From positions 32,538 through 96,537 of the forward strand of contig JAGWUP010000009.1 in the NCBI GenBank assembly GCA_028868375.1: 64,000 nt of DNA. The letters run 5' to 3'. The notes under the pieces were generated by a model that saw only the letters and a program-made list of their open reading frames with translations, was not told where the DNA came from and ran no database searches. The DNA is from Elusimicrobiota bacterium (GTDB taxonomy: Bacteria > Elusimicrobiota > Elusimicrobia > UBA1565 > UBA9628). Below are positions 13,111 through 53,135 of this stretch, in pieces (the first letter of the stretch is position 1; each line of letters begins with the position of its first letter). The position numbers were made by a program, and so were the translations under genes.

Positions 13111-14268
13111 TTAGGCGTGGTGGTGGAGGCTTTCGACGAGGTAGGGATCGCGCAGAGCCACCGGGGGAGCGGCGCTGAAGGTTCGGTCGAAGAGCAGGAT
13201 GAAGAGTCCGCCCGCCCCCAAGAATGCCCCCACCTCAAGCCAGCCGAACTGCGGATGAATGGTGACGGAGGGGCCGACCAAAAGGTAGAGATCGAGGCAG
13301 CGGCCGAAGAGCAGCAAAATGCAAACGGAAAATAAGCGGCGGATGCGCTTCTTTTGTCCGGCCGGCAAAAGAAGGGCGAAGGGCAAGGCGAAATTCACGA
13401 TCGGGTTGAGCCAGAAAAGAGGCTTCCAGCCGTTCGCCATGCGCGTGACGTAGTGGGCCGTCTCCTCGGGGAGATTGGAATACCAGATCAGAAGGTACTG
13501 GCAGAACCAAAGGTAGGCCCAGAAACAAGAAAAGGCGAAGAGGTACTTGCCAAGATCGTGGAAGTGGTGGGAGTTGAGCTCCCGATAGAGGCCGCGGCGA
13601 TGCAACAGCAGAAGAAGAAGGACCATCACGGCCAGCCCGGCCATGAACAAGCCGGAGAAAAGGTACCAAGGATAGATCGTGCTGTACCAGTCCGGCTCCA
13701 GGGACATGATCCAGAGAATCGCCGCCGCGGTGAAGGTCAGGGAAAAGGCGACGAGAAAGGCGGCGGAGACGCGCATCGCCCGCTCGCTTAAGTCCGCGCC
13801 GTCCCGCTCGTCCTGCGCCCGGGAAAGGCGGATCAAGGAGCGCGAGAGTCCGTACCAGACGGCGAAGCAGACGGCGGAGATGATGAAGAAGGAGACGGGA
13901 TTGAGAAACGCCGTCTTGGCGCGCAAAACGGGGTCTGCGGCCACCGTGGCGCTGTCGGCCCAAGGATAAAGCTTGCCGACGCCGAAGCATTGCAGGGCCA
14001 TCAACGCGGCGCCGACCGGCAGGTAGGCGCCCATGGCCTCCGGCACGCGGCAGAAGAGCGCCGACCAGCCGGCGCTGGACAGACGCTGGATCGCGGCGAA
14101 GACGAGCCCCCCCAAAGCCACGCAAACGAAGAAAAAGTTCGCCATCAGCAGAGCGCTCCAGGCGCGCCTCGGCTCCAGGAGCAAGCCCGCCGCCAGCACG
14201 GCGGCTGCCGCCGCCGCCAGAATGCCGAGCGTCCTCCTCTGATTTTCGTCCAATAGTCTAGCGGTCAT
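13111..14268 (-). CDS. actF: alternative complex III subunit ActF (NrfD-like integral membrane subunit)
   Basis: About 10 TM helices with NrfD/PsrC-like hydropathy, as the last gene of the act cluster. The ATG at 14268 overlaps the upstream stop (ATGA). Confidence 0.7.
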   Translation of the reverse strand: MTARLLDENQRRTLGILAAAAAAVLAAGLLLEPRRAWSALLMANFFFVCVALGGLVFAAIQRLSSAGWSALFCRVPEAMGAYLPVGAALMALQCFGVGKLYPWADSATVAADPVLRAKTAFLNPVSFFIISAVCFAVWYGLSRSLIRLSRAQDERDGADLSERAMRVSAAFLVAFSLTFTAAAILWIMSLEPDWYSTIYPWYLFSGLFMAGLAVMVLLLLLLHRRGLYRELNSHHFHDLGKYLFAFSCFWAYLWFCQYLLIWYSNLPEETAHYVTRMANGWKPLFWLNPIVNFALPFALLLPAGQKKRIRRLFSVCILLLFGRCLDLYLLVGPSVTIHPQFGWLEVGAFLGAGGLFILLFDRTFSAAPPVALRDPYLVESLHHHA

Positions 14269-16610
14269 GATGAGGGCTTCCCCGTTTCCCATGTCCTGAG
14301 GTATGCCACGATCTCGCGAATCTCGTCGGCCGACAGGGCCCGCACGCCCGGAGCGCCCAAGGCGAAAGGAGGCATCGGCGTGCCCGGACGCCCCATCGCG
14401 ATCGTCGCCAGCAGGAAGTTGTCGTCAGCCGCCTTTAGGAAGCCTGGATTATGCAAAGAGGGTCCGTAGTCGCCAGCTTCCAAGCCGTGCTTGCCCAATC
14501 CCCCCTCGCCGTGGCAGCGGGCGCAGTTCTGCTTGAAAAGGGCGCGGCCGCGCAGCGCCAGGGCCGGGGAGCGGTCGACCTCGCGCCGCTCGACGGGCGG
14601 ATGCCCGGAAAAGCTCATGAGATAGGTCGCCACGCTTTCGATGTCGTCTTCCGACAAATGGACCTTGCCGCTGTAAAAGGACGGCATGGGGGTATGATCG
14701 CGCCCGAGAACGAGGGTCGCCGCGATGAAACCGGCCGAGGCCACCCGCTGGAAGCCGGGCGCCCCCAGAGACGGCCCGCTGCCGCCCTGGGCGTGCTCGC
14801 CATGGCATTTCGCGCAGCCGGCCTTGCTGTGGAAGATCTCGTTGCCGTCGTCGGCGAAGGACCAGGAGAAGGTCGGCTTGAGGATCTCGGCGGGCGGATG
14901 CCTTTGAATTTGGCGCAAGTAGGCGATGACGTTATCGATATCGCCGACGCTCAGGGGATCGCGATCCCGATGCAGGAAGCCCTTCATCTCCGTTCCCCGC
15001 TTGCCGTGGGCGATCGTCTGGAAGAGGAAATCGTCGCTGACTTGGGTGCCGAAGGTGGGATTGCCGATCTGGGCGCCGACGTCGCCGGAGCCTCCGGCCA
15101 TGTGGCACTTCTGGCAGTTCGCCTTAAAGAGCGCCTGGCCAAGCTTCGGATCCCCGGAGATCGTCTTATTGGAGAGCGCGACGGAGGGCTCCGTCTGCCA
15201 GGAGCGGATGTGCGTGATGACGGCCGCAAGCTCCGCGGCGGAGAGCTGGCGCCAAGCGGGCATCGCGGTCTGCGGCCTTCCCTCGGTGATCACGTTATAA
15301 AGGAAGTGGTTGTCGGCCATCGAAAGGAAAGAGGGGCTGTTGAGGCGCGAGCCGATGCCGCCATCCCCATTCTGGCCGTGGCAGCCGGCGCAGCGCATCG
15401 CGAAGACGCGCGCTCCCTGGGCATTGGTGACGCGCGGCAGGAGGCGCTGGACCCGGGACCAGGACGGCGGCCTCGAGCGCCAGCTCTGGATCGCGGCGGA
15501 CAGATCGGCGACATCGGAAGCCTTCAAGCCGTAGGCCGCCGGCATCGCGGTATGGGGGCGTCCCCAAGCGATCGTCTCCCGCAGGAAACGCTTGGAGGCG
15601 ATGGAAAGGAAGGCGGGGCCGTTGAGGGAATTGCCGATGCCGCCCTGGCCGTTGCGGCCATGGCAGCCGGCGCAGCGCTTGGCAAAAAGGGCCTTCCCTT
15701 GAACGGCGTCGCCTCGGGCGGCCACCAGGCTGGCCGCGCTCGGGGCCGGCGTCGCCCAGGAGCGGATGTAGCGGACCAAGCTTTCGATCTGCGTCGGCGT
15801 CAAGGCCCCGCCCCAAGCCGGCATCGCGGTCCCCGCCCGCCCATGGGTTATGGTCTGACGGTAGTAATTATTGTCGGCGACGGCCAAGACGCTGGGCTGA
15901 TGCAGCGTCGGCACGCCATGCTGCGGATGAAGCCCTTCTTGGCCGTGGCAGACGGCGCAATGCTGGGCGAAGAGCTCCTTGCCGTAGCCGGCGGAGACGA
16001 GGGAGTCGCGGCGGGAGTCCTCCAAGGGGCTGCGCGGATAGGCGTGTCTGGCGATCTCCTGGCGCTGCAGGTTGCGCAGGTAGAGGATGATCTTCCAGCG
16101 ATCCTTCTGGGGAATTTGCGAGCCGTGCGCCGGCATCATGTTGAAGCCGTAGGTGATGACGTCGAAGATCGTGCCGTCCTTGAGGGCGTAGACCGATGGG
16201 GTCGCGATCGGAAAGGAAAAGGCCGGAAACAACTTGGCGACCGGACCGTCGCCCAGCCCCTCCTGCCCATGGCAGTGGGAGCAGTAGGCCTGGAAAAGCT
16301 GTTTGCCCTGGATCAGATTCTGGTAGGTCGGCAGCAATGGGTTCTTGAGCTCGCGGCCGGCAAGCTCGCGCCCCGCCGCGCCCGGACCGTAGGGCAGGGG
16401 CATGTAGCCGCGCGGGATGGTGCCGGGAACCGGCGGCTGCTCGGTGCGTCCGCCGGGCAAAACGGAATTTGGCATCTGGGATTTGTAGGCCTTCGAGTAG
16501 ACCATGTCGTTGAAAAGCCGCCAATGCGGCTCCTGCAAATCCCGCCGCACGGCCAGCACCATCGCCACCGCCGCCAGGACCAGGGCCGCCGGAGCCAGGA
16601 AACGCTTCAT
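14265..16610 (-). CDS. heptaheme c-type cytochrome built of seven tandem class-I cytochrome c domains, occupying the ActE position of ACIII
   Basis: Signal peptide, then seven CxxCH motifs: CSHCH, CAVCH, CAGCH, CAGCH, CQKCH, CAKCH and CARCH. Each is preceded by G..LF and followed by GxGG and a Met-ligand region (TAMPAW, TEMKGF, TPMPSF, TPMPPF). Confidence 0.8.
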   Translation of the reverse strand: MKRFLAPAALVLAAVAMVLAVRRDLQEPHWRLFNDMVYSKAYKSQMPNSVLPGGRTEQPPVPGTIPRGYMPLPYGPGAAGRELAGRELKNPLLPTYQNLIQGKQLFQAYCSHCHGQEGLGDGPVAKLFPAFSFPIATPSVYALKDGTIFDVITYGFNMMPAHGSQIPQKDRWKIILYLRNLQRQEIARHAYPRSPLEDSRRDSLVSAGYGKELFAQHCAVCHGQEGLHPQHGVPTLHQPSVLAVADNNYYRQTITHGRAGTAMPAWGGALTPTQIESLVRYIRSWATPAPSAASLVAARGDAVQGKALFAKRCAGCHGRNGQGGIGNSLNGPAFLSIASKRFLRETIAWGRPHTAMPAAYGLKASDVADLSAAIQSWRSRPPSWSRVQRLLPRVTNAQGARVFAMRCAGCHGQNGDGGIGSRLNSPSFLSMADNHFLYNVITEGRPQTAMPAWRQLSAAELAAVITHIRSWQTEPSVALSNKTISGDPKLGQALFKANCQKCHMAGGSGDVGAQIGNPTFGTQVSDDFLFQTIAHGKRGTEMKGFLHRDRDPLSVGDIDNVIAYLRQIQRHPPAEILKPTFSWSFADDGNEIFHSKAGCAKCHGEHAQGGSGPSLGAPGFQRVASAGFIAATLVLGRDHTPMPSFYSGKVHLSEDDIESVATYLMSFSGHPPVERREVDRSPALALRGRALFKQNCARCHGEGGLGKHGLEAGDYGPSLHNPGFLKAADDNFLLATIAMGRPGTPMPPFALGAPGVRALSADEIREIVAYLRTWETGKPSS

Positions 16611-17137
16611 GAGCCGGCTCCCGTCTCCACGACCCTGGACGCCCCCTGCTCCTCGAGGAAGCGCTGCACGACGCCCTCGCCGACCCCATCCGGCCCCTCG
16701 CGAAAGGTCAGCAGGAAGCGATCGTCAAGGGCGCCCAAGCCCTCCATGGCAGGACGGCGGCCGGGATGGAGGCGGCGCATGCGCATGAAGGTGGCGACCG
16801 TCCCCAGGCCGGCGATCAGCACGGTCAGCTCGAAGGCGATCGGGATGAGCGCTGGAGAGGCGTCGTAGGACTTGCCGCCGATGTTCAACGGCCAGTCGAA
16901 GACGCTGACCCAATATTGAAAGGAAAGGGCGGCGGTCAAGCCGATGGCGCCGAAGAGGAGGCAGAAGCGCGGCAAGGGCGAGGGCGCAAGACCCAGGGCC
17001 TCGTCCATGCCGTGGACCGGATAGGGCGTATAAGCGTCATGGACCGGCAGGCCGGCGGCTCGCGCCAGGCGGGCCGCGCGAAGCAGCTTCGTCTCCGATT
17101 CGAAGACGCCGACCACGAAACGATGCGGATGCGTCAT
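16607..17137 (-). CDS. actD: alternative complex III subunit ActD (DUF3341 membrane protein)
   Basis: 176 aa with two TM helices and the ActD-like PYPVHGMDEALG segment. Translationally coupled to both neighbours. Confidence 0.7.
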   Translation of the reverse strand: MTHPHRFVVGVFESETKLLRAARLARAAGLPVHDAYTPYPVHGMDEALGLAPSPLPRFCLLFGAIGLTAALSFQYWVSVFDWPLNIGGKSYDASPALIPIAFELTVLIAGLGTVATFMRMRRLHPGRRPAMEGLGALDDRFLLTFREGPDGVGEGVVQRFLEEQGASRVVETGAGS

Positions 17138-18507
17138 GCCTCCACCCCGGGGGCGTCCTTGGCGTAATGCAGCACGCTCTTGACCTCGCTCATCGCGATG
17201 ACCGGCAGCACGCGGCAGAAGAGGAAGAAGCAGGTGAAGAACAGCCCGAAGCTGCCGATGAGAGTGCCCACCTCGATATAGGTCGGATAGTACATCCGCC
17301 AGCTCGAGGGCAGGAAATCGCGATGCAGGGAGACCGTGATGATGACCCAGCGCTCAAGCCACATGCCGACGTTGATGAGGATCGAGATCACCCAGACCTT
17401 CCAAGGCGTCCTGCGCACGCGCTTGAACCAAAGGGCCTGCGGCGCGAAGACGTTGCAGAACACCATCGTCCAGTAGAAGGGCCAGTAGGGCCCGCGCATC
17501 CGGTTGACCGTCGAGAAGCGCTCGAAGGGATTGACGCTGTACCAGGAGGTGAACAGCTCCGTGGCGTAGGCCAAGCCCACGATCAGCGAGGTCAAGAGGG
17601 TGATCTTGCACATGGCGTCGATGTGCTCGATGGTGATGTAGGCCTCCAGGCGCATCACCTTGCGGGCGATGATCAAGAGGGTCAGGACCATCGCGAAGCC
17701 CGAGAAGATGGCCCCGCAGACGAAATAGGGCGGAAAGATGGTGCTGTGCCAGCCGGGCAAGATCGAGGTCGCGAAGTCGAAGCTGACGATGGTGTGCACC
17801 GAGAAGACCAGCGGGGTCGCCAGGCCGGCCAGCAGGAGGTACATCGACTCGTAGTGAGACCAGGTCCGCTGCGAGCCGTCCCAGCCGAGGCTCAGGCCCC
17901 GATAGAGCGTCTTACGCCAGCCCCGCGGCAGCCGCGCGGCCAGCGTCGCCAAGTCGGGCAGCAGACCGATGTACCAGAAGGTCGCCGAGATCGTGAAGTA
18001 GGTGCTGATGGCGAAGAAATCCCATAGCAGCGGGGAGCGGAAGTTGACCCAGAGAGGACCCCTGGGGTTGGGGTAGGGCACCACCCAATAGGCCAGCCAG
18101 GGACGGCCCATGTGGATCAATGGGAAAAGCGCGGCGCACATGACGGCGAAGAGGGTCATCGCCTCGGCCGAGCGGTTGATGGAGTTGCGCCAGCGCTGGC
18201 GGAACAGGAAAAGAATGGCGGAGATGAGCGTGCCGGCATGGCCGATACCGACCCAGAATACGAAGTTGGTGATGTCGAAGGACCAGCCGATCGTCTTGTT
18301 GAGGCCCCAGGTGCCGATGCCGGTCCACACCTGGTCGATGACCATGATCAGGCCCGTGAGCAGGGCCGTGGACGACAGGCCGAAACCCAGCCACCACAGG
18401 CGCGTCGGGGTGCGGTCCAGTGGATCGCAGACGTCGCGCGTGACGTCCGCGCAGGTCTTGTCGCCCTCGACCAGCGGCTTTCTCAACAGAGACAGGGTTG
18501 AGGTCAT
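17134..18507 (-). CDS. actC: alternative complex III subunit ActC (NrfD/PsrC-family quinol-interacting membrane subunit)
   Basis: MTSTLSLLRKPLVEG start (TGATG overlap with actB), then about 10 TM helices with polysulfide-reductase NrfD-like conservation (WGLNKTIGWSFDITNFVFWVGIGHAGT). Confidence 0.85.
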   Translation of the reverse strand: MTSTLSLLRKPLVEGDKTCADVTRDVCDPLDRTPTRLWWLGFGLSSTALLTGLIMVIDQVWTGIGTWGLNKTIGWSFDITNFVFWVGIGHAGTLISAILFLFRQRWRNSINRSAEAMTLFAVMCAALFPLIHMGRPWLAYWVVPYPNPRGPLWVNFRSPLLWDFFAISTYFTISATFWYIGLLPDLATLAARLPRGWRKTLYRGLSLGWDGSQRTWSHYESMYLLLAGLATPLVFSVHTIVSFDFATSILPGWHSTIFPPYFVCGAIFSGFAMVLTLLIIARKVMRLEAYITIEHIDAMCKITLLTSLIVGLAYATELFTSWYSVNPFERFSTVNRMRGPYWPFYWTMVFCNVFAPQALWFKRVRRTPWKVWVISILINVGMWLERWVIITVSLHRDFLPSSWRMYYPTYIEVGTLIGSFGLFFTCFFLFCRVLPVIAMSEVKSVLHYAKDAPGVEA

Positions 18508-21419
18508 CAGGCCTTCTCGCTGTCGTTGCGCACCTTGGTCTGGTAGAACACGGAGGGGCCGACGCCGAGCTCCGCCAGCACGCGATAGCTGCGCGAGCGC
18601 CGCGCCACCTTGGCCACGCGGCTGTCCGGATCGTTCATGTCTCCGAAGACGATCGCCTGCGCCGGGCAGCTTTGGGCGCAGGCCGGGGTGATGTCGCCGT
18701 CCTTGAGGACGCGATCGTCCTCGCGCGCCTGGAACTTGCCGGAATAAATCCTCTGGACGCAGAAGTTGCACTTTTCCATGACGCCGCGCTGGCGGACGGT
18801 GACGTCCGGATTGAGGGCGAGATTCTGGACCAGGTCCTGATGCGCGTAGTCGAACCAATTGAAGCGCCGGACCTTGTAGGGGCAGTTGTTCTCGCAGTAG
18901 CGGGTTCCCACGCAGCGGTTGTAGACCTGCATGTTGAGGCCCTCGCTGGAATGGACGGTGGCCAGCACCGGACAGACCGTCTCGCAGGGGGCGTTGTCGC
19001 AGTGCTGGCAGAGCATCGGCTGGAAAGCGACCTGCGGGCTTGCCTGCGGCTGTCCCGGAGCGCCGGAGTAATAGCGGTCGATGCGGATCCAGGACATGTC
19101 GCGGCCCTTGCGCACCTCGGCCTTGCCGACGACGGGGACATTGTTCTCCACCTGGCAGGCGATGACGCAGGCGGAGCAGCCGGAGCAGGAGTTCAAGTCG
19201 ATGGCCATGCCCCACTTATGCCCCGGGTACTTATGCCGCGGCCAAAGCTCTTCTTCTTTTTTCGGCGGTGGATTTCCGCTGTGCGGATCCAGGCGGTAGG
19301 CCGACTCCGTCGTCTCTTGCACGATATTCCGCTTCTGTCCCAGCAGCGGATCGGTCTCGAAATCGTAGATCTGGACCTTCGACAAGGGGCTGGTCCGGTC
19401 CGTCGCGGCAAGCGTCACCGCGCCCGAGGCGACGAAGGGCCGGATGTTCGCTCCCGCGAGGAGATCCTTCTCGATGGGGAACAGCTTGACGGTCGGGTAA
19501 TTCGCCGCGACCTTGCCCGCCCCCGTGCGGCCGTAGCCGAAGGCGACGGCCGCCACCCCCGGGGTCTGTCCCAGCTGCACGTAGGCCGGCAGCTCCGCCG
19601 AGCGGGCGCCATCGGACAGCCGCAGGACGCGGCCCTCCTCGACGCCCATGCGCTTGGCATCCTCGGGGGCCAGGCAGACGTAATTGCCCCAGGAGGCGCG
19701 GGTGACCGGATCGGAGAGCTCCTGGAGCCAGGGGTTGTTCGCCTGACGCCCATCGGCCAAGGCCACCGAGGCATAGGCAGCCAACTCAAAGGCTCCCGCC
19801 GCGGCGGGCTTGCGCGCCGGCTTCAAGCTGGAGACGGCACGGGCGGAGAAGTGCGCGGCCGGCATCCTAGGCTCGTCGGCCAGCACGACGCCTTTCTGCA
19901 GGGAGTCGCGCCAAAAAGCCTCGAAGCCATGGGCGCCATGGACATGGGGATAGACCTTGCGGCGCCAGAAGCCCTTGATGAAATCGTGGCCGCTGCTTCG
20001 ATCGCCGGACCAGCGCAGCACCGCCTCCAAGGCCGGACGGCTGTCGAAAAGCGGGGCGATCGTGGGCTGCTGGAGGCTGTAGACTCCGGAAACGGGCCGA
20101 GAGTCCCCGAAGGCTTCAAGCGAGTGCGAAAGCGGGGCGGCGATGCGGCAGAGGGAAGCCGTCTCGTCCAGGCGGTCGGCGAGGGCCACGGACAGCCCGA
20201 CTTTCTTGAGCCCTTCCTTGAACTCCTCGGCGCGGCCCAAATCGTAGACGGGATTGGCGTCGAGAACGATCAGGACGTCGACGGCGCCGCGGCCCATCTG
20301 CGCCAGCAGCTCGGAGACCGCGGAGTCGTCTCCTTGCGCCTGGCGGGAGGGGCGCTCGATGTCGATCGTCCTGCCGTAGGCGCCGAGCATCGCGTTGATC
20401 CAATTGACCAGTATCTGAACCGCCGGATCGTTGGAGCCGCTGACGACCAAAGCGTTCCTGCCGGCCTTGGAAAGAGCCCCCGCCGTCCGCTCGAGCGTCC
20501 CCTGATCCACCCCGCAAGCGCCTTCGACGGCGGGAAGCGGTCCTGTCCAGCCGGTATGGCTGGCGACCAAGCGGCCCAGGGCCGCCACGGCCGAGAACTC
20601 CTGGGAGGGCAGAAGTCCGGCGCGCAAATCGGCGTTAGCCCCCGTCACGGAGAGGCGGGGCTCGAACTGGGCATGCCACGACATTCCGCCCTGAGGCTGA
20701 TCCGGGCGGCGCCCCTTGGACCAGCCGCGGATGAATTCCACGGGGAAAAGCCACGCCCCCAGGAAATCCGCGTCGAAGCCGACGATGGCGCGCGCCTCGT
20801 CGAAGCGATAATGCGGCACGACGGCGCGGCCGTGGGTGCGGCGATGCGCCTCGGCGATCGCCCAGGAGGAAATGGGATCGTAAACGACCCGGCGAAGCGA
20901 CGGATAACGGCGCGCCATCCGTTCGATGGCCGCGTCCAGCGAGGGGCTGGTCGAGGTCCGGCCAAGGATGCGGACGGATTTAGCCGACCTCAGGCGCCGC
21001 CGGACCTCGGCGTCCACCGTCGCCCAGCTCGCCTCGCCGCCTCCGATGAGCGGCTGGCGCAGGCGCTCCGAATCGTAGAGGTCCAGGATCGTAGCCTGTC
21101 CCCGCGCGCACAAGCCGCCGCGCGACAAGGGATGGTCGGGATTGCCCTCCAGCTTGATCGGCCTGCCGTCCCGGCTCTTGACCAGGACGCCGCAGGCGGA
21201 ACTGCAGCCGCCGCAGGTGGAGGCGAACCACAAGGCCTTGCCGGCGACAGCGTCCTCGGGCTGCCGGACGTAGGGCAGAATCTTCTCGACCGGGGTGCGC
21301 AGCTTGCAGCCCGCCATCGATAGGGCGGCGAAGCTCGCTCCCAAGAACTCCAGAAAATCGCGGCGCGTCAGGCCGTCAGCCTTGTCGTCGGCGCCGGCCT
21401 TGGCGGCATCGTCTTCCAT
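18507..21419 (-). CDS. actB: alternative complex III subunit ActB (molybdopterin-oxidoreductase-like plus 4Fe-4S ferredoxin-like fusion, Tat-exported)
   Basis: Twin-arginine signal TRRDFLEFLGASFAAL, a MopB-like domain, then a C-terminal polyferredoxin region with repeated CxxCxxCxxxCP motifs (CSGCSACVIAC, CQHCDNAPCETVCP, CNFCVQRI). Start chosen at Met39 of the ORF. Confidence 0.85.
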   Translation of the reverse strand: MEDDAAKAGADDKADGLTRRDFLEFLGASFAALSMAGCKLRTPVEKILPYVRQPEDAVAGKALWFASTCGGCSSACGVLVKSRDGRPIKLEGNPDHPLSRGGLCARGQATILDLYDSERLRQPLIGGGEASWATVDAEVRRRLRSAKSVRILGRTSTSPSLDAAIERMARRYPSLRRVVYDPISSWAIAEAHRRTHGRAVVPHYRFDEARAIVGFDADFLGAWLFPVEFIRGWSKGRRPDQPQGGMSWHAQFEPRLSVTGANADLRAGLLPSQEFSAVAALGRLVASHTGWTGPLPAVEGACGVDQGTLERTAGALSKAGRNALVVSGSNDPAVQILVNWINAMLGAYGRTIDIERPSRQAQGDDSAVSELLAQMGRGAVDVLIVLDANPVYDLGRAEEFKEGLKKVGLSVALADRLDETASLCRIAAPLSHSLEAFGDSRPVSGVYSLQQPTIAPLFDSRPALEAVLRWSGDRSSGHDFIKGFWRRKVYPHVHGAHGFEAFWRDSLQKGVVLADEPRMPAAHFSARAVSSLKPARKPAAAGAFELAAYASVALADGRQANNPWLQELSDPVTRASWGNYVCLAPEDAKRMGVEEGRVLRLSDGARSAELPAYVQLGQTPGVAAVAFGYGRTGAGKVAANYPTVKLFPIEKDLLAGANIRPFVASGAVTLAATDRTSPLSKVQIYDFETDPLLGQKRNIVQETTESAYRLDPHSGNPPPKKEEELWPRHKYPGHKWGMAIDLNSCSGCSACVIACQVENNVPVVGKAEVRKGRDMSWIRIDRYYSGAPGQPQASPQVAFQPMLCQHCDNAPCETVCPVLATVHSSEGLNMQVYNRCVGTRYCENNCPYKVRRFNWFDYAHQDLVQNLALNPDVTVRQRGVMEKCNFCVQRIYSGKFQAREDDRVLKDGDITPACAQSCPAQAIVFGDMNDPDSRVAKVARRSRSYRVLAELGVGPSVFYQTKVRNDSEKA

Positions 21420-21439
21420 GATCTTTTCGCCTGTCTCGC

Positions 21440-22330
21440 TCACCAGTGGCATGCCGCGCAGTCGGTCGGCCCCCCCACGCGTTTCCAATGCGTCGGCGCC
21501 TGTCCGGGACGCAGGCGATGGCATTGGATGCACCAGCCCATCGACAGACTAGCCGCCTGCCTCACCCGATCCATTTTCTGGATCGGTCCGTGGCACTCCT
21601 GGCACTGGATGCCGTTGGCGATGTGGACACGGTGGCTGAAATGGGCGAAGTCCGGAAGATGGTGCACCCGCACCCACGGGATCGTCGCCGCCTCGGGAGT
21701 GGCGCGGGCATCCCAAAAATGGAGCAGCTTCGCGATCTCGGCGGACGGCTCCTTGGATCCCGCCATCCCCTTGACCACGTTATGGCAGTTCATGCAGACG
21801 CTGACCGCCGGCACCCCCGCCACGTCGCTGCTGCGAGCCCCATAGTGGCAATAGAAACAGGAAATCTTGAGCTTCCCCGCATGGATGGCGTGCGAAAAGG
21901 CGATCGGCTGCACCGGCTCGTAGCCTTGCTGATTGCCGAGCAGATGGAAATAGCGGCGCCCGCCCAAGGACAGGTAGGCGCAGAGTATCGCCAGCAAGGC
22001 CAGCACCAATGGAGCGCCTCGGACGCCGAACTGCCAGGCCCAAATCATCCCCGCCAGCAGCACCAAGGAAAAGGCGATGCCGGGCCAATAAATCGAGAAG
22101 CCCTCGTCGGGCGTCTTCACCTTGTCGGCCAGCGGCTCTTGCGGCAAGAGCTGCTGATCCAGGGAAGCCGCCGGGTCGCGATGACCCGGGACGACCGCAT
22201 GGTAGCGCAAGGTCTGCGCGCTCTTTCGTTTCGGGGCGTGACCCGTCCCCGCGACCGCTGGCCCCGCGGCCGCCAAGACGAGGAGCCAGGCCCACTTCAT
22301 TCGCCGAGTTCTCGCATGTCGCCTACCCAT
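21440..22330 (-). CDS. actA: alternative complex III subunit ActA, pentaheme c-type cytochrome
   Basis: Five CxxCH motifs (CFYCH, CMNCH, CQECH, CIQCH, CAACH) and an N-terminal signal/anchor. The start may be Met11 at 22300, given the position of the sigma-54 promoter. Confidence 0.85.
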   Translation of the reverse strand: MGRRHARTRRMKWAWLLVLAAAGPAVAGTGHAPKRKSAQTLRYHAVVPGHRDPAASLDQQLLPQEPLADKVKTPDEGFSIYWPGIAFSLVLLAGMIWAWQFGVRGAPLVLALLAILCAYLSLGGRRYFHLLGNQQGYEPVQPIAFSHAIHAGKLKISCFYCHYGARSSDVAGVPAVSVCMNCHNVVKGMAGSKEPSAEIAKLLHFWDARATPEAATIPWVRVHHLPDFAHFSHRVHIANGIQCQECHGPIQKMDRVRQAASLSMGWCIQCHRLRPGQAPTHWKRVGGPTDCAACHW

Positions 22331-22348: not shown

Positions 22349-22364
22349 GGCAACACTCTTGCCA
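22349..22364 (-). promoter_or_regulatory. sigma-54 (-24/-12) promoter TGGCAagagtgTTGCC upstream of actA
   Basis: Exact GG-N10-GC spacing with TGGCA and TTGC elements on the minus strand, 20-50 nt upstream of the candidate actA start codons. Confidence 0.6.
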
Positions 22365-23049: not shown

Positions 23050-24417
23050 CTAGAAGCCCACCTCCACCTGCAGGCTGGCCCGATCGCCGTGCACCGCCAG
23101 AGTGCCCGCGGTTGCGGTCAGCGTCCCGCCCTGGTAACCCCGCGTCGTGTCCACGGAGTACTCGGCGAAAGCCTTCACGTTGGGCTGGAAATAATGCGCC
23201 AGGTGGAAGGTGATGTAATTGAACTGCTGCGTGCCGTTGAAGGTCGTGTACCAGTTCTCGCGAATCAACGGCATCAGGAACGGATATGCCTCGTTGCCCC
23301 TCTTGTAGGCATAGGCCAACTCGGCGTAGGCCGCGCGATCCGTCGCAGTGGCCCCGTCGAAGGAGGGATCGCCCTCATGAGTGTAGGCGAAGGCTCCGCG
23401 CGCGGCGAAGTTGCCGATCTCCCAAAGGGCGTCGAAGCCGGTCCAGACGAACTGCTGCTTGGACAAGACTCCCGCCGTGCCCCCAGTGAAGCCGCTGGCG
23501 TCGCGAGGCCCCTCGTGGCCGTAGGACCCGAAGGCTCCGACCATCAGCCCGGAGTTGTTGTCGAAGGCCAGCCGCAGGTCTCCGTTGGTCGGCGCGTTGG
23601 CCTGCCGGCCCAGGTCGTCATCCTTGCTGGCGCCCGCCGCATAATAAAGGAACGCGGCGTTCGGCAGCGGAACCTGTCCGTAGACGTACATCGTCTGCTG
23701 CGTGCCGGTCAGGGAATTGCCGGCCACCGAGCTCTGATCCGGCTGCAGCAGGTCCGTCGCCCGGTTTGCGATCGTCGGGCTCTCCGCCGCGGACAGCGTC
23801 TGGTAGGGATCGTCGACGAAGAAACCGCGGCGCGCCAGCACCACGTTGAGCTGGTCATAGGGATGATAGCCGAAGCGCAGGTCGCCCAAACCCGGAGCGA
23901 AGCCGCCCGCTGCGTTGGCGTCCATCTCGCCGAAGTAGGAGATTTGCCTGGCCGCGTCTCCCCCCGCCACGAAGAAATCCACGTCGTTGAGCGGCTGGGA
24001 CTTGAAGCCGCCCGTGTTGGGACTCGCCGTGCCGCCCATCTGGCCTCCGGCGTTCGCGATGTTGCCGCGCCCGTTGTCGAAAGGCCGAGAGCGCACGATC
24101 ACCGCCCAGGGGAATATCTTCTCGATGCTCATCTGCTTATCGGAGCTCTTGAGCACGCCGACGTCGGAGTCCTTATCCCGGACGTAGCCGTTCATCTTGA
24201 ACTGCCGGCCGTAGGCGTTGAGGATCGGGAAGGCGTAATGGCATTGCGAGCAAGAGACTCCGTACTTGCGCGCGAAGGACGGAAGGGCCTGGACCGACTC
24301 GACGGCGCTGCGGCGCAGCGGGCAGAGGTGCTCGCACGTCTGATGCAGGGGCGGCAGCAGCCAAGCGACGGCCAATAGGACCGCCGCCAGAGCCGGGATC
24401 ATGAATTTCTTGGACAT
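23050..24417 (-). CDS. Cyc2-like fused monoheme cytochrome c / outer-membrane beta-barrel porin (candidate Fe(II) oxidase / extracellular electron transfer protein)
   Basis: GAGGAG RBS, signal peptide MSKKFMIPALAAVLLAVAWLL and the N-terminal motif LPSFARKYGVSCSQCHYAFPILNAYGRQFK carrying one CxxCH. About 400 aa of Gly/Tyr/Asp-rich amphipathic beta-strand sequence end in a terminal Phe (QVEVGF). Confidence 0.6.
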   Translation of the reverse strand: MSKKFMIPALAAVLLAVAWLLPPLHQTCEHLCPLRRSAVESVQALPSFARKYGVSCSQCHYAFPILNAYGRQFKMNGYVRDKDSDVGVLKSSDKQMSIEKIFPWAVIVRSRPFDNGRGNIANAGGQMGGTASPNTGGFKSQPLNDVDFFVAGGDAARQISYFGEMDANAAGGFAPGLGDLRFGYHPYDQLNVVLARRGFFVDDPYQTLSAAESPTIANRATDLLQPDQSSVAGNSLTGTQQTMYVYGQVPLPNAAFLYYAAGASKDDDLGRQANAPTNGDLRLAFDNNSGLMVGAFGSYGHEGPRDASGFTGGTAGVLSKQQFVWTGFDALWEIGNFAARGAFAYTHEGDPSFDGATATDRAAYAELAYAYKRGNEAYPFLMPLIRENWYTTFNGTQQFNYITFHLAHYFQPNVKAFAEYSVDTTRGYQGGTLTATAGTLAVHGDRASLQVEVGF

Positions 24418-24456: not shown

Positions 24457-24472
24457 AGCAACATTTTTGCCA
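24457..24472 (-). promoter_or_regulatory. sigma-54 (-24/-12) promoter TGGCAaaaatgTTGCT upstream of the cyc2-like gene
   Basis: Consensus spacing, located about 40 nt upstream of the ATG and directly downstream of the NtrC-family regulator gene. GATTCC...GGAATTTC repeats lie 40-75 bp further upstream (24509-24534). Confidence 0.6.
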
Positions 24473-24552: not shown

Positions 24553-25926
24553 TCAGCGGTAGAGCCGCGGCTGGAGGCCGTATTTCTTAAGGTACCAATA
24601 CAAGTTGCTCAGCGGCAGGGCCGCGGCCTGGGCCGCCGCCTTGGCGTTGCCGTGGTGTTCCTTAAGGAGAGCGTCGAAGTATTCCCGCTCGAAGGCCTGG
24701 ATGCCCTGCCTCTTTCGCTCCACGAACCCCCCCCGCGCCTCGAGCGGCTCCGTCGGAGCCGAGACGAGGTTCTCGGGAAGGTCCTCGGGCCGCAGGAGGC
24801 TGCGGCCGCACAGCAGGATGGAGCGCTTGAGGACGTTCTGCAGCTCGCGGATGTTTCCGGGCCAGGAGTAGCTCGTCAAAATCTCCAGCGCCGCGGGGTC
24901 GACGCGCAAAACGTTCGAGTCCAGCTCCTTGGAGTAGCGCGGCAGGAAATGCTCCAGCAGCAGCCGTATGTCGTCCGGGCGCTCGCGCAGCGGAGGCACG
25001 CGGATGGCGACCACGTTCAAGCGATAGAAGAGATCGGAGCGGAAGCGCCCCGCCGCGACGTCCGCCTTCAAGTCGCGATTGGTGGCGGCGACGACGCGCA
25101 CGTCGACGCTTTGGACCTCGTTGCCTCCGACCCGGCGAAATTGCCGCTCCTGGAGCGCGCGCAGGAGCTTGGCCTGCAGCCCTCCCGGCAATTCCCCCAC
25201 CTCGTCCATGAAGAAAGTGCCGTGGTCGGCGAACTCCAGGAGCCCCGGAGCGGCCTCTCCCGCGTCGGTGTAGGCCCCGCGCTCGTGGCCGAAGAACTCG
25301 TTTTCAAGCAGGTTCTCCGGGATCGCGCCGCAGTCCACCGGCACGAAGCGCCCACGCCTGCCGGAGCGCGCGTGCAGGCGCCGCGCGATGAGCTCCTTGC
25401 CGGTTCCCGACTCGCCCAGGATCAGCACGTCCGCCGCCGTCGCCGCCACCTTGTCGACCAGCGCCAAGACCTCCAGAATGCTGGGGCTGGCGCCCACGAT
25501 GCCGTCGGTAGCGTATTCCCGGGTGAGGTGCCTGGTGAGCAGGCGATGCTCCCCCTTGAGCCGCCTCTGCTCCAAGGCGCGCGCCACCTTCAGGCGCAGG
25601 TCGTCGGGGTGGAAGGGCTTGATCAAGTAGTCCAGCGCCCCGTCGCGCAGCGCCTGCACGGCGGATTCGACGCCCGGGAAAGCCGTGATCAGGATGAAGG
25701 GAAGCTCGGCGTCCGTCTTCTTGGCGGCGCGCAAAAGCTCCAGGCCGCTTAAACCCGGCATGTTGATGTCGGCCACCACCGCGTCGAACGTTCCCCGGGT
25801 CAAGCGCTCCAGGGCGCGCGGCGCATCCGCCTCCAGCACGACGTTGACGGCCTCCCGCGAGAGCGCGGCCTTGCAGGTCGAGAGCATGTCCCTCTCGTCG
25901 TCGACGACGAGGACGCTCTGGGTCAC
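24553..25926 (-). CDS. sigma-54-dependent response regulator (NtrC/AtoC family: REC + AAA+ + Fis HTH)
   Basis: REC domain (VLVVDDERDM, phospho-Asp), AAA+ Walker A GESGTGKE, the GAFTGA-like ENEFFGHERGAYTDA sigma-54 contact loop, and a C-terminal HTH. Confidence 0.9.
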   Translation of the reverse strand: MTQSVLVVDDERDMLSTCKAALSREAVNVVLEADAPRALERLTRGTFDAVVADINMPGLSGLELLRAAKKTDAELPFILITAFPGVESAVQALRDGALDYLIKPFHPDDLRLKVARALEQRRLKGEHRLLTRHLTREYATDGIVGASPSILEVLALVDKVAATAADVLILGESGTGKELIARRLHARSGRRGRFVPVDCGAIPENLLENEFFGHERGAYTDAGEAAPGLLEFADHGTFFMDEVGELPGGLQAKLLRALQERQFRRVGGNEVQSVDVRVVAATNRDLKADVAAGRFRSDLFYRLNVVAIRVPPLRERPDDIRLLLEHFLPRYSKELDSNVLRVDPAALEILTSYSWPGNIRELQNVLKRSILLCGRSLLRPEDLPENLVSAPTEPLEARGGFVERKRQGIQAFEREYFDALLKEHHGNAKAAAQAAALPLSNLYWYLKKYGLQPRLYR

Positions 25927-27287
25927 GGCGCCGGAGCCCCCGGAGCGGGAAAGCGGATGGTGAAGCTCGCCCCCCGGCCGACGCCCCCGTCCACCAGGAT
26001 TTCCCCGCCGTGCGCCTTGACGAAGGACAGGGAGATCGGCAGGCCCAGGCCGGTCCCGTGGTCGGCCGTCTTGGTCGAGAAAAGGGGCTCGAAGATCTTG
26101 CGCAGATGCTCCGGCGCGATGCCTTCCCCGGTGTCCGAGATCACCGTCTCGATCCAGCCGCCCGCCTCGCGCGTGGCGGCGCCGAGCCGGCCCCCGCGAG
26201 GCATGGCCTCGATCGCGTTATGGATCACGTTCAGGTAGGCATGAAAGAGGTCGTCGTAGCTGGCCCGCACCGGCGCGACGGCGCGCAAATCGCGGCGGAC
26301 CTCTATGCCGCGGGCGCGCGCCTGCGCCGCGCTCGTGGCCAAGGCGTCGCAGAGCACCTCGTTGACGTCCACCTCGCCGCGCGGCTCGGAGGAAGGCTTG
26401 AGCAGGCGCAGCAGGCGCTGCACGACCCGGCCCACGCGATCGCTCTGGCGGTCGACGATCTCCAGGGACTCCTCAAGGAACTCCCCGGAGCGAAACTCCG
26501 GGGAGCCGGAGCGCAGCAGCTTCATGCGCGCGGAGATGATCCCGATGGGGTTATTGACCTCGTGCGCGATGAAGCCGACGATCTGCCCCAAAGCGCCCAG
26601 CCGCTCGGCCTTGAGCAGCCGCTCCTGGCTGTCGCGCAGCCTGCCCATGATCGTCGTGATGAAGTAGGCCGTGCCGGCCAATAGCCCCAGGAAGGTCGCC
26701 GTCATGCCCACGACCTCCCTCAGCCGCTCCGGGCTGGCGAACGCCAGCAGGCGGTAGTGAGGCCAGAGGCCGGCGTACTCGCCGAAGCTCAGGCAGCAGA
26801 AGAGGCCCCCCGCCATGGCGGTCACCAGCCAGGCGTCGGAGACCGACAGGAGAATCCCCGCCATCAAAACGTGGAAGACGTAGAGAACGTACAGGGGGTT
26901 CTCCAGCCCTCCTGAAAAATGGAGCAGAAAGGTCAGCAAGACCAGGTCGAAGGCCATCTGCGCCAGCAGGAATGGGCGCTGCCGGCGCAGCCTGGAGCGC
27001 AGGGACAGGAAAGCGAAATTCCCGAGCAGGATGGCCGCCACGCATGTCCAGAGCGGCGCGGCCAAGGAGGGATCGACCCAGCCCAGGACGTGGGCGGCTA
27101 AAAAGACCGTCACGCCGGCCGCGGTCGCCGCCACGCCGCGCATGCGGATAAGCCAATCGGCCGGGCCGCGGCCGCTGCCGGCCGCCTCGGCGCCGATGAT
27201 CAGGGGAAGCTCCGGCGCCAGCCGCCGTCCCATCACCGCCGCGCCGACGGCCACCAGGCAGAGCAGGACGCCTAGGCCTTCGAGCAT
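25923..27287 (-). CDS. membrane sensor histidine kinase
   Basis: About 6 N-terminal TM helices, H-box FIAHEVNNPIG, and an HATPase_c with N, G1 (DTGEGI) and G2 (GTGLGL) boxes. Overlaps the regulator gene start. Confidence 0.85.
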   Translation of the reverse strand: MLEGLGVLLCLVAVGAAVMGRRLAPELPLIIGAEAAGSGRGPADWLIRMRGVAATAAGVTVFLAAHVLGWVDPSLAAPLWTCVAAILLGNFAFLSLRSRLRRQRPFLLAQMAFDLVLLTFLLHFSGGLENPLYVLYVFHVLMAGILLSVSDAWLVTAMAGGLFCCLSFGEYAGLWPHYRLLAFASPERLREVVGMTATFLGLLAGTAYFITTIMGRLRDSQERLLKAERLGALGQIVGFIAHEVNNPIGIISARMKLLRSGSPEFRSGEFLEESLEIVDRQSDRVGRVVQRLLRLLKPSSEPRGEVDVNEVLCDALATSAAQARARGIEVRRDLRAVAPVRASYDDLFHAYLNVIHNAIEAMPRGGRLGAATREAGGWIETVISDTGEGIAPEHLRKIFEPLFSTKTADHGTGLGLPISLSFVKAHGGEILVDGGVGRGASFTIRFPAPGAPAP

Positions 27288-49564: not shown

Positions 49565-49565
49565 C

Positions 49566-53080: not shown

Positions 53081-53135
53081 GGCTTGCCTCCTTCTGTCGC
53101 TTCGTCCATACGCCTTGAGCGTTTCCATGGCGGCC

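Follow-up and report, generated by a model that had tools for sequence, protein, structure and literature searches.

A heptahaem ActE in Elusimicrobia ACIII operons: an ActE module joined to six class-I cytochrome c domains

Introduction

ActE is the cytochrome subunit encoded between actD and actF in the operons of alternative complex III (ACIII; menaquinol:cytochrome c oxidoreductase), for instance in Rhodothermus marinus (6F0K_E) and Flavobacterium johnsoniae (6BTM_E). The canonical protein comprises 160–210 aa, carries one class-I His/Met haem, described as the highest-potential exit haem of the complex, and is anchored by a lipobox Cys (PMC7439408). A four-haem ActE-like protein has been noted in the candidate phylum MBNT15 (PMC9386147). 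We found no published description of a heptahaem ActE in the literature.

Chains that link outer-membrane Cyc2 to an inner-membrane complex are the second point of reference. In the proteobacterium Acidithiobacillus ferrooxidans, the rus operon has the order cyc2-cyc1-cox, and petI the order cycA1-bc1. In neutrophilic iron oxidisers, the standing model, explicitly speculative, leads from Cyc2 through a periplasmic cytochrome (Cyc1) to ACIII or bc1, with ACIII proposed as the point at which electrons enter the quinone pool uphill; no one has yet demonstrated ACIII running in reverse, and the literature itself calls this ‘highly speculative’. Here, we describe a locus from an uncultured Elusimicrobia bacterium, known from genes alone, that has the same three elements (outer-membrane Cyc2, class-I cytochrome, and inner-membrane complex), but in which, unlike in rus and petI, ACIII itself adjoins cyc2 and part of the periplasmic link is fused to the complex.

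The actE7 gene and its operon

The window (the whole 64-kb stretch of DNA that was analysed) contains a complete act operon, actABCDEF, with gene overlaps of 1–4 nt (Table 1). An earlier note on this DNA had described a 781-aa ORF with seven CxxCH motifs without stating its strand, which is minus; translation from the ATG start codon bears the ORF out. The motifs lie at residues 110, 218, 313, 407, 499, 599, and 696, at a spacing of 92–108 aa, and account for all 14 Cys of the protein, there being none outside CxxCH in the whole 781-aa translation. The Met ligand that had been read in each haem domain is also present, in a (G)T.MP context 38–45 residues past each haem-binding His, and the seven ligands are invariant or ≥90% conserved in 27 orthologues. 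Pfam annotation returns seven stretches of Cytochrome_CBB3 (PF13442, E 6e-81) and seven of Cytochrom_C (PF00034). The computed mass is 84 kDa for the apoprotein and ~88 kDa with seven haems.

The flanking genes are securely actD and actF, as the note had assigned them, and ATGA overlaps join the actD stop to the actE7 start and the actE7 stop to the actF start, both in the sequence and in public gene calls; actE7 is thus an integral, translationally coupled member of the operon in the ActE slot. Among the other subunits, the actB product resembles QrcB/QrcC, and ActC is 76% identical to that of a second locus (L001).

We find actE7 to be one intact gene. Three independent assemblies, NCBI GCA_028865065.1 and two from Logan, encode the identical product, and GC3 is 0.84 in the actE7 frame versus 0.66 in an 805-aa shadow ORF on the plus strand. 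A search of the gene against itself found no near-identical DNA repeats; those present are short and 63–78% identical and therefore do not point to a collapsed or expanded repeat.

Table 1. Features of the act operon, of actE7, and of the neighbouring genes in the window.
Feature	Position	Strand	Evidence
actF, 385 aa	13111..14268	minus	6btm_F E 1.6e-57; 6f0k_F E 6.8e-52
actE7, heptahaem ActE, 781 aa	14265..16610	minus	ORF, translation, seven PF13442 stretches
Six-domain class-I cytochrome c array D2–D7, residues 206–781 (block from ~196)	14268..15995	minus	alignments, AF2
CxxCH of D2–D7	15945-15959, 15660-15674, 15378-15392, 15102-15116, 14802-14816, 14511-14525	minus	translation
Hinge between ActE module and array, residues ~189–205	15996..16046	minus	AF2 pLDDT
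ActE module proper, residues 23–189 (pre-haem extension, haem domain 1)	16044..16544	minus	phmmer, Foldseek
N-terminal hydrophobic helix, residues 1–22, probable membrane anchor	16545..16610	minus	AF2, orthologue N-termini
actD	16607..17137	minus	PF11821, E 3.5e-47
actC, NrfD-like quinol-binding membrane subunit, 457 aa	17134..18507	minus	PF03916; gene call in L090
actB, molybdopterin-like and Fe-S subunit, 978 aa	18507..21443	minus	Molybdop_Fe4S4, Fer4_11, Fer4_7; gene call
actA, pentahaem, membrane-anchored	21440..22300	minus	five CxxCH, Cytochrome_C7, gene call
Sigma-54-type -24/-12 box TGGCAAGAGTGTTGC, intergenic, upstream of actA	22350..22364	minus	pattern match only
Monohaem cytochrome c between cyc2 and actA, 177 aa	22479..23012	minus	single CSRCH, weak cytochrome c matches
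Cyc2-family fused cytochrome-porin, 455 aa, candidate distal partner	23050..24417	minus	motif, AF2, PDB matches
Sigma-54-type -24/-12 box TGGCAAAAATGTTGC, upstream of cyc2	24458..24472	minus	pattern match only
NtrC-type sigma-54 activator	24553..25926	minus	Sigma54_activat E 1.4e-63, Response_reg
Histidine kinase	25923..27287	minus	HATPase_c, HisKA

An ActE module followed by a six-domain block

The protein had been read as seven c552-like modules in series. Seven class-I His/Met domains are indeed present, 25–46% identical to one another and about equally conserved, but they are not equivalent: the first is ActE, and the other six form a distinct block. Residues 1–189, made of module 1 and a 60-residue N-terminal extension, are a true ActE. 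In phmmer searches, this part matches 6btm_E (E 2.9e-27, query 27–184) and 6f0k_E (E 9.6e-25), as well as the chains of Roseiflexus (6lod_E) and Chloroflexus (8k9e_E), with homology that takes in the haem domain as well as the extension before it, and E values from 3e-27 to 2.6e-10 over the four solved chains (residues 27–189), which are also the top Foldseek matches. The haem of this domain is bound by CSHCH (16269-16283) and Met158; unlike in the canonical protein, six more domains follow this exit haem.

The N-terminus differs from that of canonical ActE. AF2 places a helix at residues 4–20, and the N-termini of the heptahaem orthologues compared share a helix, after which comes a conserved RRD/RRN motif, and lack a lipobox; the helix probably stands in for the lipobox Cys as the membrane anchor. 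In the AF2 model of the whole chain (pLDDT 83, pTM 0.71), residues 189–195 are the sole internal segment with pLDDT <50, and the linkers within D2–D7, an array predicted with high confidence, are all >80, as might be expected of a fairly rigid unit on a flexible hinge.

No solved chain matches the overall arrangement of ActE7 (Foldseek; best TM-score normalised to query 0.18). Partial likenesses are found in actinobacterial QcrC (cytochrome cc), CcoP of cbb3 oxidase, and cytochrome c4, all of which have tandem His/Met class-I domains that align with consecutive ActE7 domain pairs, although they have two such domains versus the six or seven of ActE7. They are dihaem cytochromes that take the place of soluble cytochrome c and, like ActE7, are joined or belong to a respiratory complex.

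Closer relatives of D2–D7 exist outside ACIII. The same six domains, in the same order, make up haems 5–10 of decahaem proteins encoded with GltD-like, Rieske, and cytochrome b subunits, and haems 1–6 of free hexahaem proteins of ~650 aa. Judged by these alignments, D2–D7 is a pre-existing block in which each domain has a fixed positional identity. Like ActE7, the relatives are placed where a quinol-oxidising membrane module passes its electrons on, but the module is Rieske/cytochrome b and not ACIII, and the N-terminal partner of the block is a helix-anchored tetrahaem module or a helix alone, in place of ActE. At ~47 loci in Planctomycetota, Binatia, Hydrogenedentota, and other phyla, their genes immediately precede that of a NapA-like molybdoenzyme, accompanied by NapG- and NapH-like genes. 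Cyc2 is absent from these ~47 clusters, and the general role of the block is therefore not iron-specific.

C-terminal extension of ActE has also taken other forms. Dihaem and tetrahaem ActE homologues (P0195, P0197, and P0208) likewise carry added C-terminal c-type haem domains, which match D2–D7 at 29–43 bits and not colinearly; these are not positional orthologues of D2–D7 and are therefore independent extensions. None of them, nor the MBNT15 protein (set apart by its description), has seven haems.

Distribution of heptahaem ActE

The earlier note had left room for such multi-domain proteins being routine in this lineage, and in the sequence databases they are: 76 clusters of seven-haem proteins, mostly of ~770–800 aa, were retrieved, and the order actB-actC-actD-heptahaem gene-actF recurs in 31 further species-level genomes (MAGs), wherever the flank was available. 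Some entries of ~200–490 aa resemble shorter forms of ActE7; the sole one whose contig was read (P0193) is cut by the contig end.

Cyc2 and regulatory genes next to the act operon

Upstream of actA, a small monohaem cytochrome and a Cyc2-family protein are encoded. The latter has the ALPSFARKY motif, a single CSQCH, and PIL from four residues past the His, agrees with the published description of Cyc2, and has a motif that 25 homologues retain unchanged or almost unchanged. AF2 predicts a β-barrel of ~16 strands (pTM 0.74), and the best PDB matches include the porins OprO (4RJW) and OprP (2O4V).

Proximity of Cyc2 to ACIII is recurrent but not universal. Seven contigs, i.e., the window and six others, have a Cyc2-like gene no more than ~2.5 kb from the ACIII cluster, in three arrangements. 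Homologues of the monohaem cytochrome adjoin Cyc2-like genes at four loci (L001, L092, L095, and L099), and at a fifth (L100) one lies upstream of actA. The Cyc2-like gene and ACIII are on separate contigs in MAG 13 (L013 and L094), an Elusimicrobiota genome of the same lineage that is reported to encode a Cyc2-like protein together with oxidases of the caa3, cbb3, and bd types. One ACIII locus with the heptahaem protein (L003) has no Cyc2-like gene within 10 kb, and one locus (L097) has a Cyc2-like gene with ACIII not nearby.

Sigma-54-type boxes precede both actA and cyc2, and the NtrC-type activator and histidine kinase lie directly upstream of the cyc2 unit. With the pattern TGGCAC-N5-TTGC, which TGGCAAGAGTGTTGC matches with one mismatch, only six one-mismatch sites occur in the 64-kb window, although pattern matches overall are not enriched (49 found versus 62 expected). 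The cyc2 and monohaem cytochrome genes are probably co-regulated with the act operon.

Proposed role of ActE7

On balance, we favour ActE7 as an ACIII subunit with a built-in periplasmic relay to a distal partner, most likely the adjacent Cyc2. A canonical ActE module, probably anchored by a helix instead of a lipid, is retained in a complete ACIII and fused through a short flexible hinge to six class-I domains, whose haems are probably of high potential because they are His/Met-ligated. The haem wire of ACIII (five ActA haems and the ActE exit haem) would thereby be lengthened by six haems, and the relay would replace a diffusible carrier, with electrons passing between the inner-membrane complex and the cytochrome-porin, helped by the small monohaem cytochrome. 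A plausible route runs from Fe(II) through Cyc2 and cytochrome c to ActE7, and from there either into ACIII, which would reduce menaquinone by working in reverse, or on to cytochrome c oxidases. The suggestion of a wire to Cyc2-like or outer-membrane cytochromes had been made before, and the Cyc2 context supports it without proving it, given that the block serves NapA-like clusters elsewhere. Were D2–D7 compact, ActE7 would not span the periplasm; if extended, the ACIII of these uncultured Elusimicrobia may have an electron cable across the periplasm built into its exit subunit.

A possible though rather unlikely alternative is that the six extra domains replace soluble cytochrome c as a tethered carrier that feeds haem-copper oxidases (caa3/cbb3), possibly in a supercomplex, with Cyc2 incidental. 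Such an assembly would resemble the actinobacterial bcc-aa3 with its dihaem QcrC or the F. johnsoniae ACIII-aa3 supercomplex, and it would suit the alignment of domain pairs with CcoP and QcrC, the high potential suggested by His/Met ligation, the type A, caa3, and cbb3 oxidases reported for the lineage, and the transfer of electrons by canonical ACIII to oxidases or soluble carriers. However, clustering with cox genes is typical of oxidase-serving ACIII, and at five annotated loci, haem-copper oxidase genes are missing from the ~10 kb around the operon; known supercomplexes need one or two fused domains, which six conserved, non-equivalent domains exceed; and Cyc2 proximity recurs in rearranged forms.

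We regard as improbable a role of the array as donor to a periplasmic reductase, e.g., a Nap-like nitrate reductase or other N-oxide reductases. The NapA-linked paralogues in other phyla speak for it, as do the genes for NapH-like, YHS, and ferredoxin proteins that precede actA at L003 and the N-oxide reductases reported in related Elusimicrobia; yet the window has no NapA-, NapG-, or NapH-like genes, and they are missing from the flanks read at most ACIII-type loci. Still less credible is the array as a capacitor that stores electrons, or as a redox buffer, attached to ACIII: one polypeptide does hold seven one-electron centres, but fixed domain positions across three architectures and equal conservation are more in keeping with a defined path or with docking surfaces than with a non-directional reservoir. 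Finally, an artefactual ORF (frameshift, misassembly, or gene-calling fusion of separate cytochrome genes), a concern raised in the earlier note, is refuted by the identical product across assemblies, the 76 clusters with their synteny, and the lack of near-identical repeats.

The favoured periplasmic relay would share with the porin-cytochrome conduits MtrCAB and MtoAB/PioAB a possible part in electron transfer across the cell envelope. Those conduits have densely packed bis-His haems, in contrast to ActE7, which has one Met-ligated haem per ~95–108 residues and is thus not a packed multihaem fold. Separately, the window also encodes a decahaem cytochrome of the MtrA/DmsE family with a putative barrel.

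An Intact Seven-Heme Gene in the ActE Position

The window encodes a complete alternative complex III (ACIII) operon, in which a 781-residue gene, actE7, is the sole occupant of the ActE position. A pentaheme ActA, ActB, NrfD-like ActC and ActF, and ActD are all present in this one operon. Neighboring act genes overlap by 1–4 nt in the public gene calls, 4-nt ATGA overlaps are visible in the sequence at both actE7 junctions (with actD and actF), and a terminator-like hairpin lies ~155 nt 3′ of actF. Judged by its subunits, the complex would be of the quinol:cytochrome c (or cupredoxin) oxidoreductase type. The pentaheme ActA of the window lacks the N-terminal class-I monoheme domain of Flavobacterium johnsoniae ActA, which is present in the 362-residue ActA of the closest relative (contig L001, 4073–5161).

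Features of the act region and other respiratory loci in the window
Feature	Coordinates	Strand	Basis or content
Small monoheme class-I cytochrome c, 184 aa	5325–5879	plus	~8 kb from act operon
actF	13111–14268	minus	6btm_F, E = 1.6e-57
actE7, heptaheme gene	14265–16610	minus	seven CxxCH
actD	16607–17137	minus	PF11821, E = 3.5e-47
actC	17134–18507	minus	NrfD (PF03916)
actB	18507–21443	minus	Molybdop_Fe4S4 and Fer4 (Fe-S) domains
actA	21440–22300	minus	pentaheme; 5 CxxCH, Cytochrome_C7
Sigma-54-type box TGGCAA-N5-TTGC	22350–22364	minus	20–50 nt upstream of actA; pattern match
Monoheme cytochrome c, 177 aa	22479–23012	minus	CSRCH; lysine-rich tail
Predicted Cyc2-family cytochrome-porin, 455 aa	23050–24417	minus	Cyc2 motifs and predicted barrel
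Sigma-54-type box TGGCAA-N5-TTGC	24458–24472	minus	~40 nt upstream of cyc2; pattern match
NtrC-type sigma-54 activator and histidine kinase	24553–27287	minus	next genes upstream of cyc2
cydA and cydB, cytochrome bd oxidase	31786–34217	minus	
Rieske/bc-type cluster	47381–49943	minus	monoheme cytochrome c, Rieske, split cytochrome b6, subunit IV fused to diheme cytochrome c
DmsE/MtrA-family decaheme and putative outer-membrane barrel	51113–54077	minus	313 aa, 10 CxxCH, TIGR03508 above cut-off

The ORF list holds actE7 at exactly its reported coordinates, as a 781-residue reading frame with an ATG start. Its seven CxxCH motifs begin at residues 110, 218, 313, 407, 499, 599, and 696, i.e., with a spacing of 92–108 residues, and every one of the 14 cysteines of the protein lies inside them. 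Pfam recognizes seven stretches each of Cytochrome_CBB3 (PF13442, E = 6e-81) and Cytochrom_C (PF00034), which is the domain check proposed in the earlier note, while in NCBIfam the protein partly matches the models of ccoP, actinobacterial QcrC, c550/c551, and related class-I cytochromes. A methionine in a (G)T.MP context follows each heme-binding histidine by 38–45 residues. An alignment of 27 orthologues shows no variation in the seven CxxCH motifs and at least 90% conservation, up to full invariance, in the seven methionine ligands; conservation is about equal across all seven domains (D1–D7), so none of them is decaying. ORF, Pfam, and operon evidence thus agree with the earlier note in placing an intact heptaheme gene between actD and actF, overlapping both. 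An 805-residue plus-strand ORF antisense to actE7 (14451–16868) is a shadow ORF of GC-rich DNA rather than a gene, with a GC3 of 0.66 versus 0.84 in the actE7 frame.

A frameshift, an assembly artefact, or a repeat misassembly can be ruled out. The identical 781-residue protein is encoded on another assembly (GCA_028865065.1, contig JAGWKZ010000010.1) and in two independent Logan assemblies (runs SRR32006849 and SRR32006850). DNA-level repeats within the gene are short and only 63–78% identical, none near-identical, and therefore nothing points to repeat expansion by the assembler. A homology search returned 76 seven-heme clusters, mostly of 770–800 residues and sharing 43–61% identity with ActE7; they stem from MAGs of Elusimicrobiota and from some that are labelled Planctomycetota. 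When one genome per species was scanned, 31 further genomes proved to have full-length orthologues, among them ‘MAG 13’ of Grettenberger and Hamilton, from an acid-mine-drainage site (GTDB placement Elusimicrobiota; Elusimicrobia; UBA1565; UBA9628). Finally, a tblastn survey of 35 ACIII-type loci, including two additional relatives, answered the proposal to compare ACIII operons in relatives: actB-actC-actD lie upstream and actF downstream of the heptaheme gene wherever the contig allowed this to be read. The actE7 gene is therefore real and standard in its lineage. These sequences have been public for years under the label ‘c-type cytochrome’, the only name they carry. The earlier note had named a protein already routine in the lineage as a refutation; this applies to the databases and not to the literature. 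Méheust et al. recorded ACIII in Elusimicrobia ‘lineage IV’ (which we do not equate with the lineage of the window) and did not comment on ActE. Our search of the open-access literature found no published seven-heme or multi-domain ActE and no shared six-domain block, the sole near case being the mention of a four-heme ActE-like protein in candidate phylum MBNT15 (PMC9386147).

Anatomy of ActE7

Residues 27–189 of the protein, spanning the pre-heme extension and the first heme domain, are homologous to the ActE chains of solved ACIII structures. Phmmer aligned them with chain E of F. johnsoniae (6btm_E; E = 2.9e-27, query residues 27–184 to chain residues 6–161), Rhodothermus marinus (6f0k_E; 9.6e-25), Roseiflexus (6lod_E; 2.5e-12), and Chloroflexus (8k9e_E; 2.6e-10), which is the comparison with Rhodothermus and Chloroflexus suggested in the earlier note. 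The same chains are the top Foldseek matches of the AlphaFold model of ActE7. Both homology to structurally characterized ActE and the location between actD and actF, kept wherever the flank of an ACIII-type locus could be read, identify the protein as an ActE. It departs from the canonical form in two respects. Canonical ActE is a monoheme protein of ~160–210 residues, whereas ActE7 has 781 residues and seven CxxCH motifs; and canonical ActE is a lipoprotein with an N-terminal lipobox cysteine (PMC7439408), whereas ActE7 has no cysteine outside its CxxCH motifs. The N-termini of its orthologues consist instead of a hydrophobic helix, which we infer to act as a membrane anchor, and a conserved RRD/RRN after it.

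All seven domains resemble other class-I cytochromes in type, with CxxCH near the domain N-terminus, a distal methionine, and matches to the ccoP and QcrC models; however, c4, CcoP, and QcrC are two-domain diheme proteins, and ActE7 has seven domains. It also differs from the packed multihemes of the MtrA, OmcS, and c3–c7 types, in which CxxCH spacing is short and ligation mostly bis-His, in contrast to the wide spacing and methionine ligands seen here; only negligible partial matches to Cytochrome_C7 and an MtrC domain were found, below cut-off. D2–D7 share 25–46% identity with one another and 18–31% with D1. The earlier description as seven c552-like modules thus holds insofar as all seven are class-I His/Met domains, and fails as to their equivalence: ActE7 is an ActE module (D1, residues 1–189) followed by a portable block of six domains (D2–D7). 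An origin of seven equivalent c552 modules by recent tandem duplication is ruled out, because the domains are only 18–46% identical and each is nearer to its positional orthologue in other proteins.

In the AlphaFold model, built on a 27-sequence alignment (mean pLDDT 83, pTM 0.71), confidence drops in only two places ahead of the extreme C-terminus, residues 21–48 and a hinge at residues 189–195 between the ActE module and D2, and the linkers inside D2–D7 all score above 80. The model suggests that D2–D7 form a six-domain rigid body tethered to ActE through one flexible hinge. In a Foldseek search, no solved structure resembled the whole protein (best TM-score normalized to query 0.18).

The Six-Domain Block in Other Proteins

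Weaker matches of the homology search fall into two types: proteins of ~860–1000 residues with ten CxxCH motifs, in which an N-terminal helix and four close motifs precede six motifs at ~100-residue spacing, and proteins of ~650 residues with six CxxCH motifs. Domain-by-domain BLAST aligned D2–D7 with hemes 5–10 of the decaheme and hemes 1–6 of the hexaheme proteins in almost every comparison. The colinearity is strict, each domain of the block being nearer to its positional counterpart than to the adjacent domains, and the same comparison found no counterpart of D1 in either type. The decaheme protein is thus a tetraheme module joined to the same six-domain block as in actE7.

Decaheme genes lie in a conserved cluster at ~47 loci (L005, L006, L037, L038, and L040–L086), from Planctomycetota/Phycisphaerae, Binatia, Hydrogenedentota, myxobacterial MAGs, and others. 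The cluster comprises a GltD-like NAD(P) oxidoreductase, Rieske, cytochrome b, the decaheme gene, a NapA-like molybdoenzyme, and two NapG-like and two NapH-like genes, resembling the anammox-type Rieske/cytochrome b complexes with an NAD(P) module. We know of no description of this GltD-like/Rieske/cytochrome b/decaheme/NapA-like cluster. A free hexaheme gene adjoins the same molybdoenzyme and ferredoxin genes. Thus, one six-domain block has been joined to three different N-terminal parts, always beside a quinol-oxidizing or periplasmic redox module: Elusimicrobia carry it on ACIII, other phyla on Rieske/cytochrome b complexes. At a more distant ACIII-heptaheme locus (L003, 1–3861), the genes immediately preceding actA encode NapH-like (Fer4_5), YHS-domain, and NapG-like ferredoxin proteins and have homologues in the Rieske/cytochrome b clusters.

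A Cyc2-Family Neighbor

Directly upstream of actA lie genes for a 177-residue monoheme cytochrome and a 455-residue protein. The latter has no Pfam or NCBIfam match, and a homology search with it returned only Elusimicrobia proteins without a functional name. In the definition of Keffer et al., a Cyc2 carries a signal peptide and a single CXXCH, with AXPXFAR[Q/K][T/Y] shortly before it and PXL four residues after it; the protein has 365 residues or more and the fold of a 16-stranded porin like OprO (4RJW) and OprP (2O4V). The window protein reads ...Q-ALPSFARKY-GVS-CSQCH-YAF-PIL... and ends in ...VEVGF; its CSQCH is single, and CXXCH, upstream motif, PXL, and length all agree with the definition, with the motif residues invariant or at least 90% conserved among 25 homologues. 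AlphaFold2 predicts a barrel of ~16 long strands (pTM 0.74), and Foldseek returned OprO 4RJW as the first and OprP 2O4V as the twelfth match of this model, in agreement with the 16-stranded porin. By every testable sequence and fold criterion, the predicted protein is a Cyc2-family cytochrome-porin. Its gene suggests that this Elusimicrobia MAG has the potential to oxidize Fe(II) and, more broadly, points to Fe(II) oxidation in free-living members of a phylum cultured only as anaerobes.

The proximity of Cyc2 and ACIII is recurrent but not universal. In seven contigs, the window included, a Cyc2-like gene lies less than 2.5 kb from the ACIII-heptaheme cluster, in three arrangements: upstream and on the same strand (the window, L001, L092, and L095), directly 3′ of actF (L009 and L100), or convergent with the cluster (L093). 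By a crude sign, matching listed contig sizes, a Cyc2-like homologue and a heptaheme protein share a contig in at least nine cases. On the other hand, L003 lacks a Cyc2-like gene in the 10 kb around its ACIII-heptaheme cluster, L097 has a Cyc2-like gene with ACIII not nearby, and MAG 13 carries the two on separate contigs. A ‘Cyc2-like’ protein has been published for MAG 13, and the assembly encodes a 59%-identical homologue of the window protein; we found no identifiers for the published protein in the supplements of that paper. Homologues of the 177-residue monoheme cytochrome adjoin Cyc2-like genes in four relatives and lie upstream of actA in a fifth. It is a candidate periplasmic partner, and its position is analogous to that of cyc1, a member of the rus operon of A. 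ferrooxidans.

A Possible Extension of the ACIII Wire

ACIII has been seen to date as a six-heme wire that ends in the one heme of ActE and hands electrons over to a diffusible or docked partner. ActE holds the highest-potential heme and forms the exit of the wire, with measured values of +391 mV in Chloroflexus and +331/+439 mV in F. johnsoniae; by analogy, ActE7 would take the same exit role. We infer the direction of electron flow, the potentials, and the contacts of ActE7 as follows. In the simplest reading, six His/Met domains attached through a hinge would lengthen the ACIII wire into the periplasm, in place of a diffusible carrier. The complex measures 141 × 98 × 80 Å with a 42 Å membrane arm, so that its peripheral arm already stands several tens of Å above the membrane. 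Class-I cytochrome domains are ~25–30 Å across, and D2–D7 could add between ~60 Å, if packed in pairs, and ~170 Å, if in line; of the two geometries, only the latter would reach the outer membrane. Conservation of an ACIII with six added, built-in heme domains reveals a modular output side in quinol-oxidizing complexes.

The main rival reading is that D2–D7 tether ACIII to caa3 or cbb3 oxidases, both of which have been reported for the lineage (in the MAG 13 and Elusimicrobia literature). Around the act operon, five loci with gene-level annotation have no heme-copper oxidase genes within ~10 kb, and the sole terminal oxidase in the window is cytochrome bd, which uses quinol and not cytochrome c. 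A second rival, donation from D2–D7 to Nap-like or other periplasmic reductases, would fit the Nap-like gene context of the paralogues of the block.

Since Cyc2-like genes recur, rearranged, near the cluster, the Cyc2/monoheme pair is the best candidate partner of a lengthened ACIII wire here. Cyc2 of Mariprofundus PV-1 has a potential of +208 mV, and Fe(II) electrons would thus go downhill into His/Met hemes. From ActE7, they might pass to cytochrome c oxidases or, through ACIII reversed by the proton-motive force, to menaquinone. The earlier suggestion of a wire to Cyc2 is in this respect plausible, with genomic support from the recurrent proximity, and unproven. In its most specific form, the proposal is that ActE7 is a periplasm-spanning, high-potential heme chain coupling an outer-membrane Cyc2 Fe(II) oxidase to ACIII, a hard-wired Fe(II):menaquinone (or Fe(II):oxidase) path without a diffusible carrier, and that the six-domain block serves as a portable ‘extension lead’, plugged by different phyla onto either ACIII or Rieske/cytochrome b complexes; we think it rather improbable that all of this is correct. 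A route from Cyc2 through cytochrome c to ACIII has long been drawn for neutrophilic iron oxidizers, although its own authors term it ‘highly speculative’, and has stood in models of iron oxidation for over a decade without evidence. The frequent Cyc2-family gene near ACIII in this lineage is unusually direct genomic support for it, and ActE7, if it does couple Cyc2 to ACIII, would for the first time give a concrete molecular link to the role postulated for ACIII in neutrophilic iron oxidation. It is also a defined test protein, a ~88-kDa cytochrome that should in principle be expressible in E. coli with a Ccm heme-maturation plasmid, as was Cyc2 (Keffer et al.).

Regulation and Other Respiratory Genes

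A terminator-like hairpin separates the cyc2/monoheme unit from the act unit. The sigma-54 box TGGCAC-N5-TTGC has six one-mismatch matches in the window, two of them correctly oriented upstream of cyc2 and actA. Over the window as a whole, the pattern occurs no more often than expected (49 found versus 62 expected), and relatives conserve the box only in part. By their position alone, the two boxes suggest, together with the adjacent NtrC-type activator, a common regulation of the cyc2 and act units.

The Rieske/bc-type cluster, which comes after hemA (49977–51020), is a second quinol:cytochrome c module, so that the organism combines ACIII with a bc-type complex. The DmsE/MtrA-family decaheme gene is followed by that for a putative barrel of ~646 residues ending in ...SLSAKF (the listed 792-residue ORF starts too early), a pair that resembles the MtoAB/PioAB porin-cytochrome conduits.

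Other Extended Forms of ActE

The ActE module alone was searched against 1.84 billion representative proteins. One heme is found in 130 of the 147 newly returned representatives of ActE homologues; several matches are ActD-ActE fusions, and a few are ActE forms with two or four hemes (P0195, P0197, and P0208). Neither in order nor in score are the extra domains of these three related to D2–D7, indicating that ActE has been extended more than once, independently. Among apparent close one-heme relatives of the module (P0193, P0194, and P0198), the one inspected, P0193 (198 residues, 55% identical), was rejected because a contig end cuts its gene within an identical operon. An extreme poly-cytochrome c, P0196, unrelated to the window, has 1399 residues and 19 CxxCH motifs with an almost exact 71-residue period.
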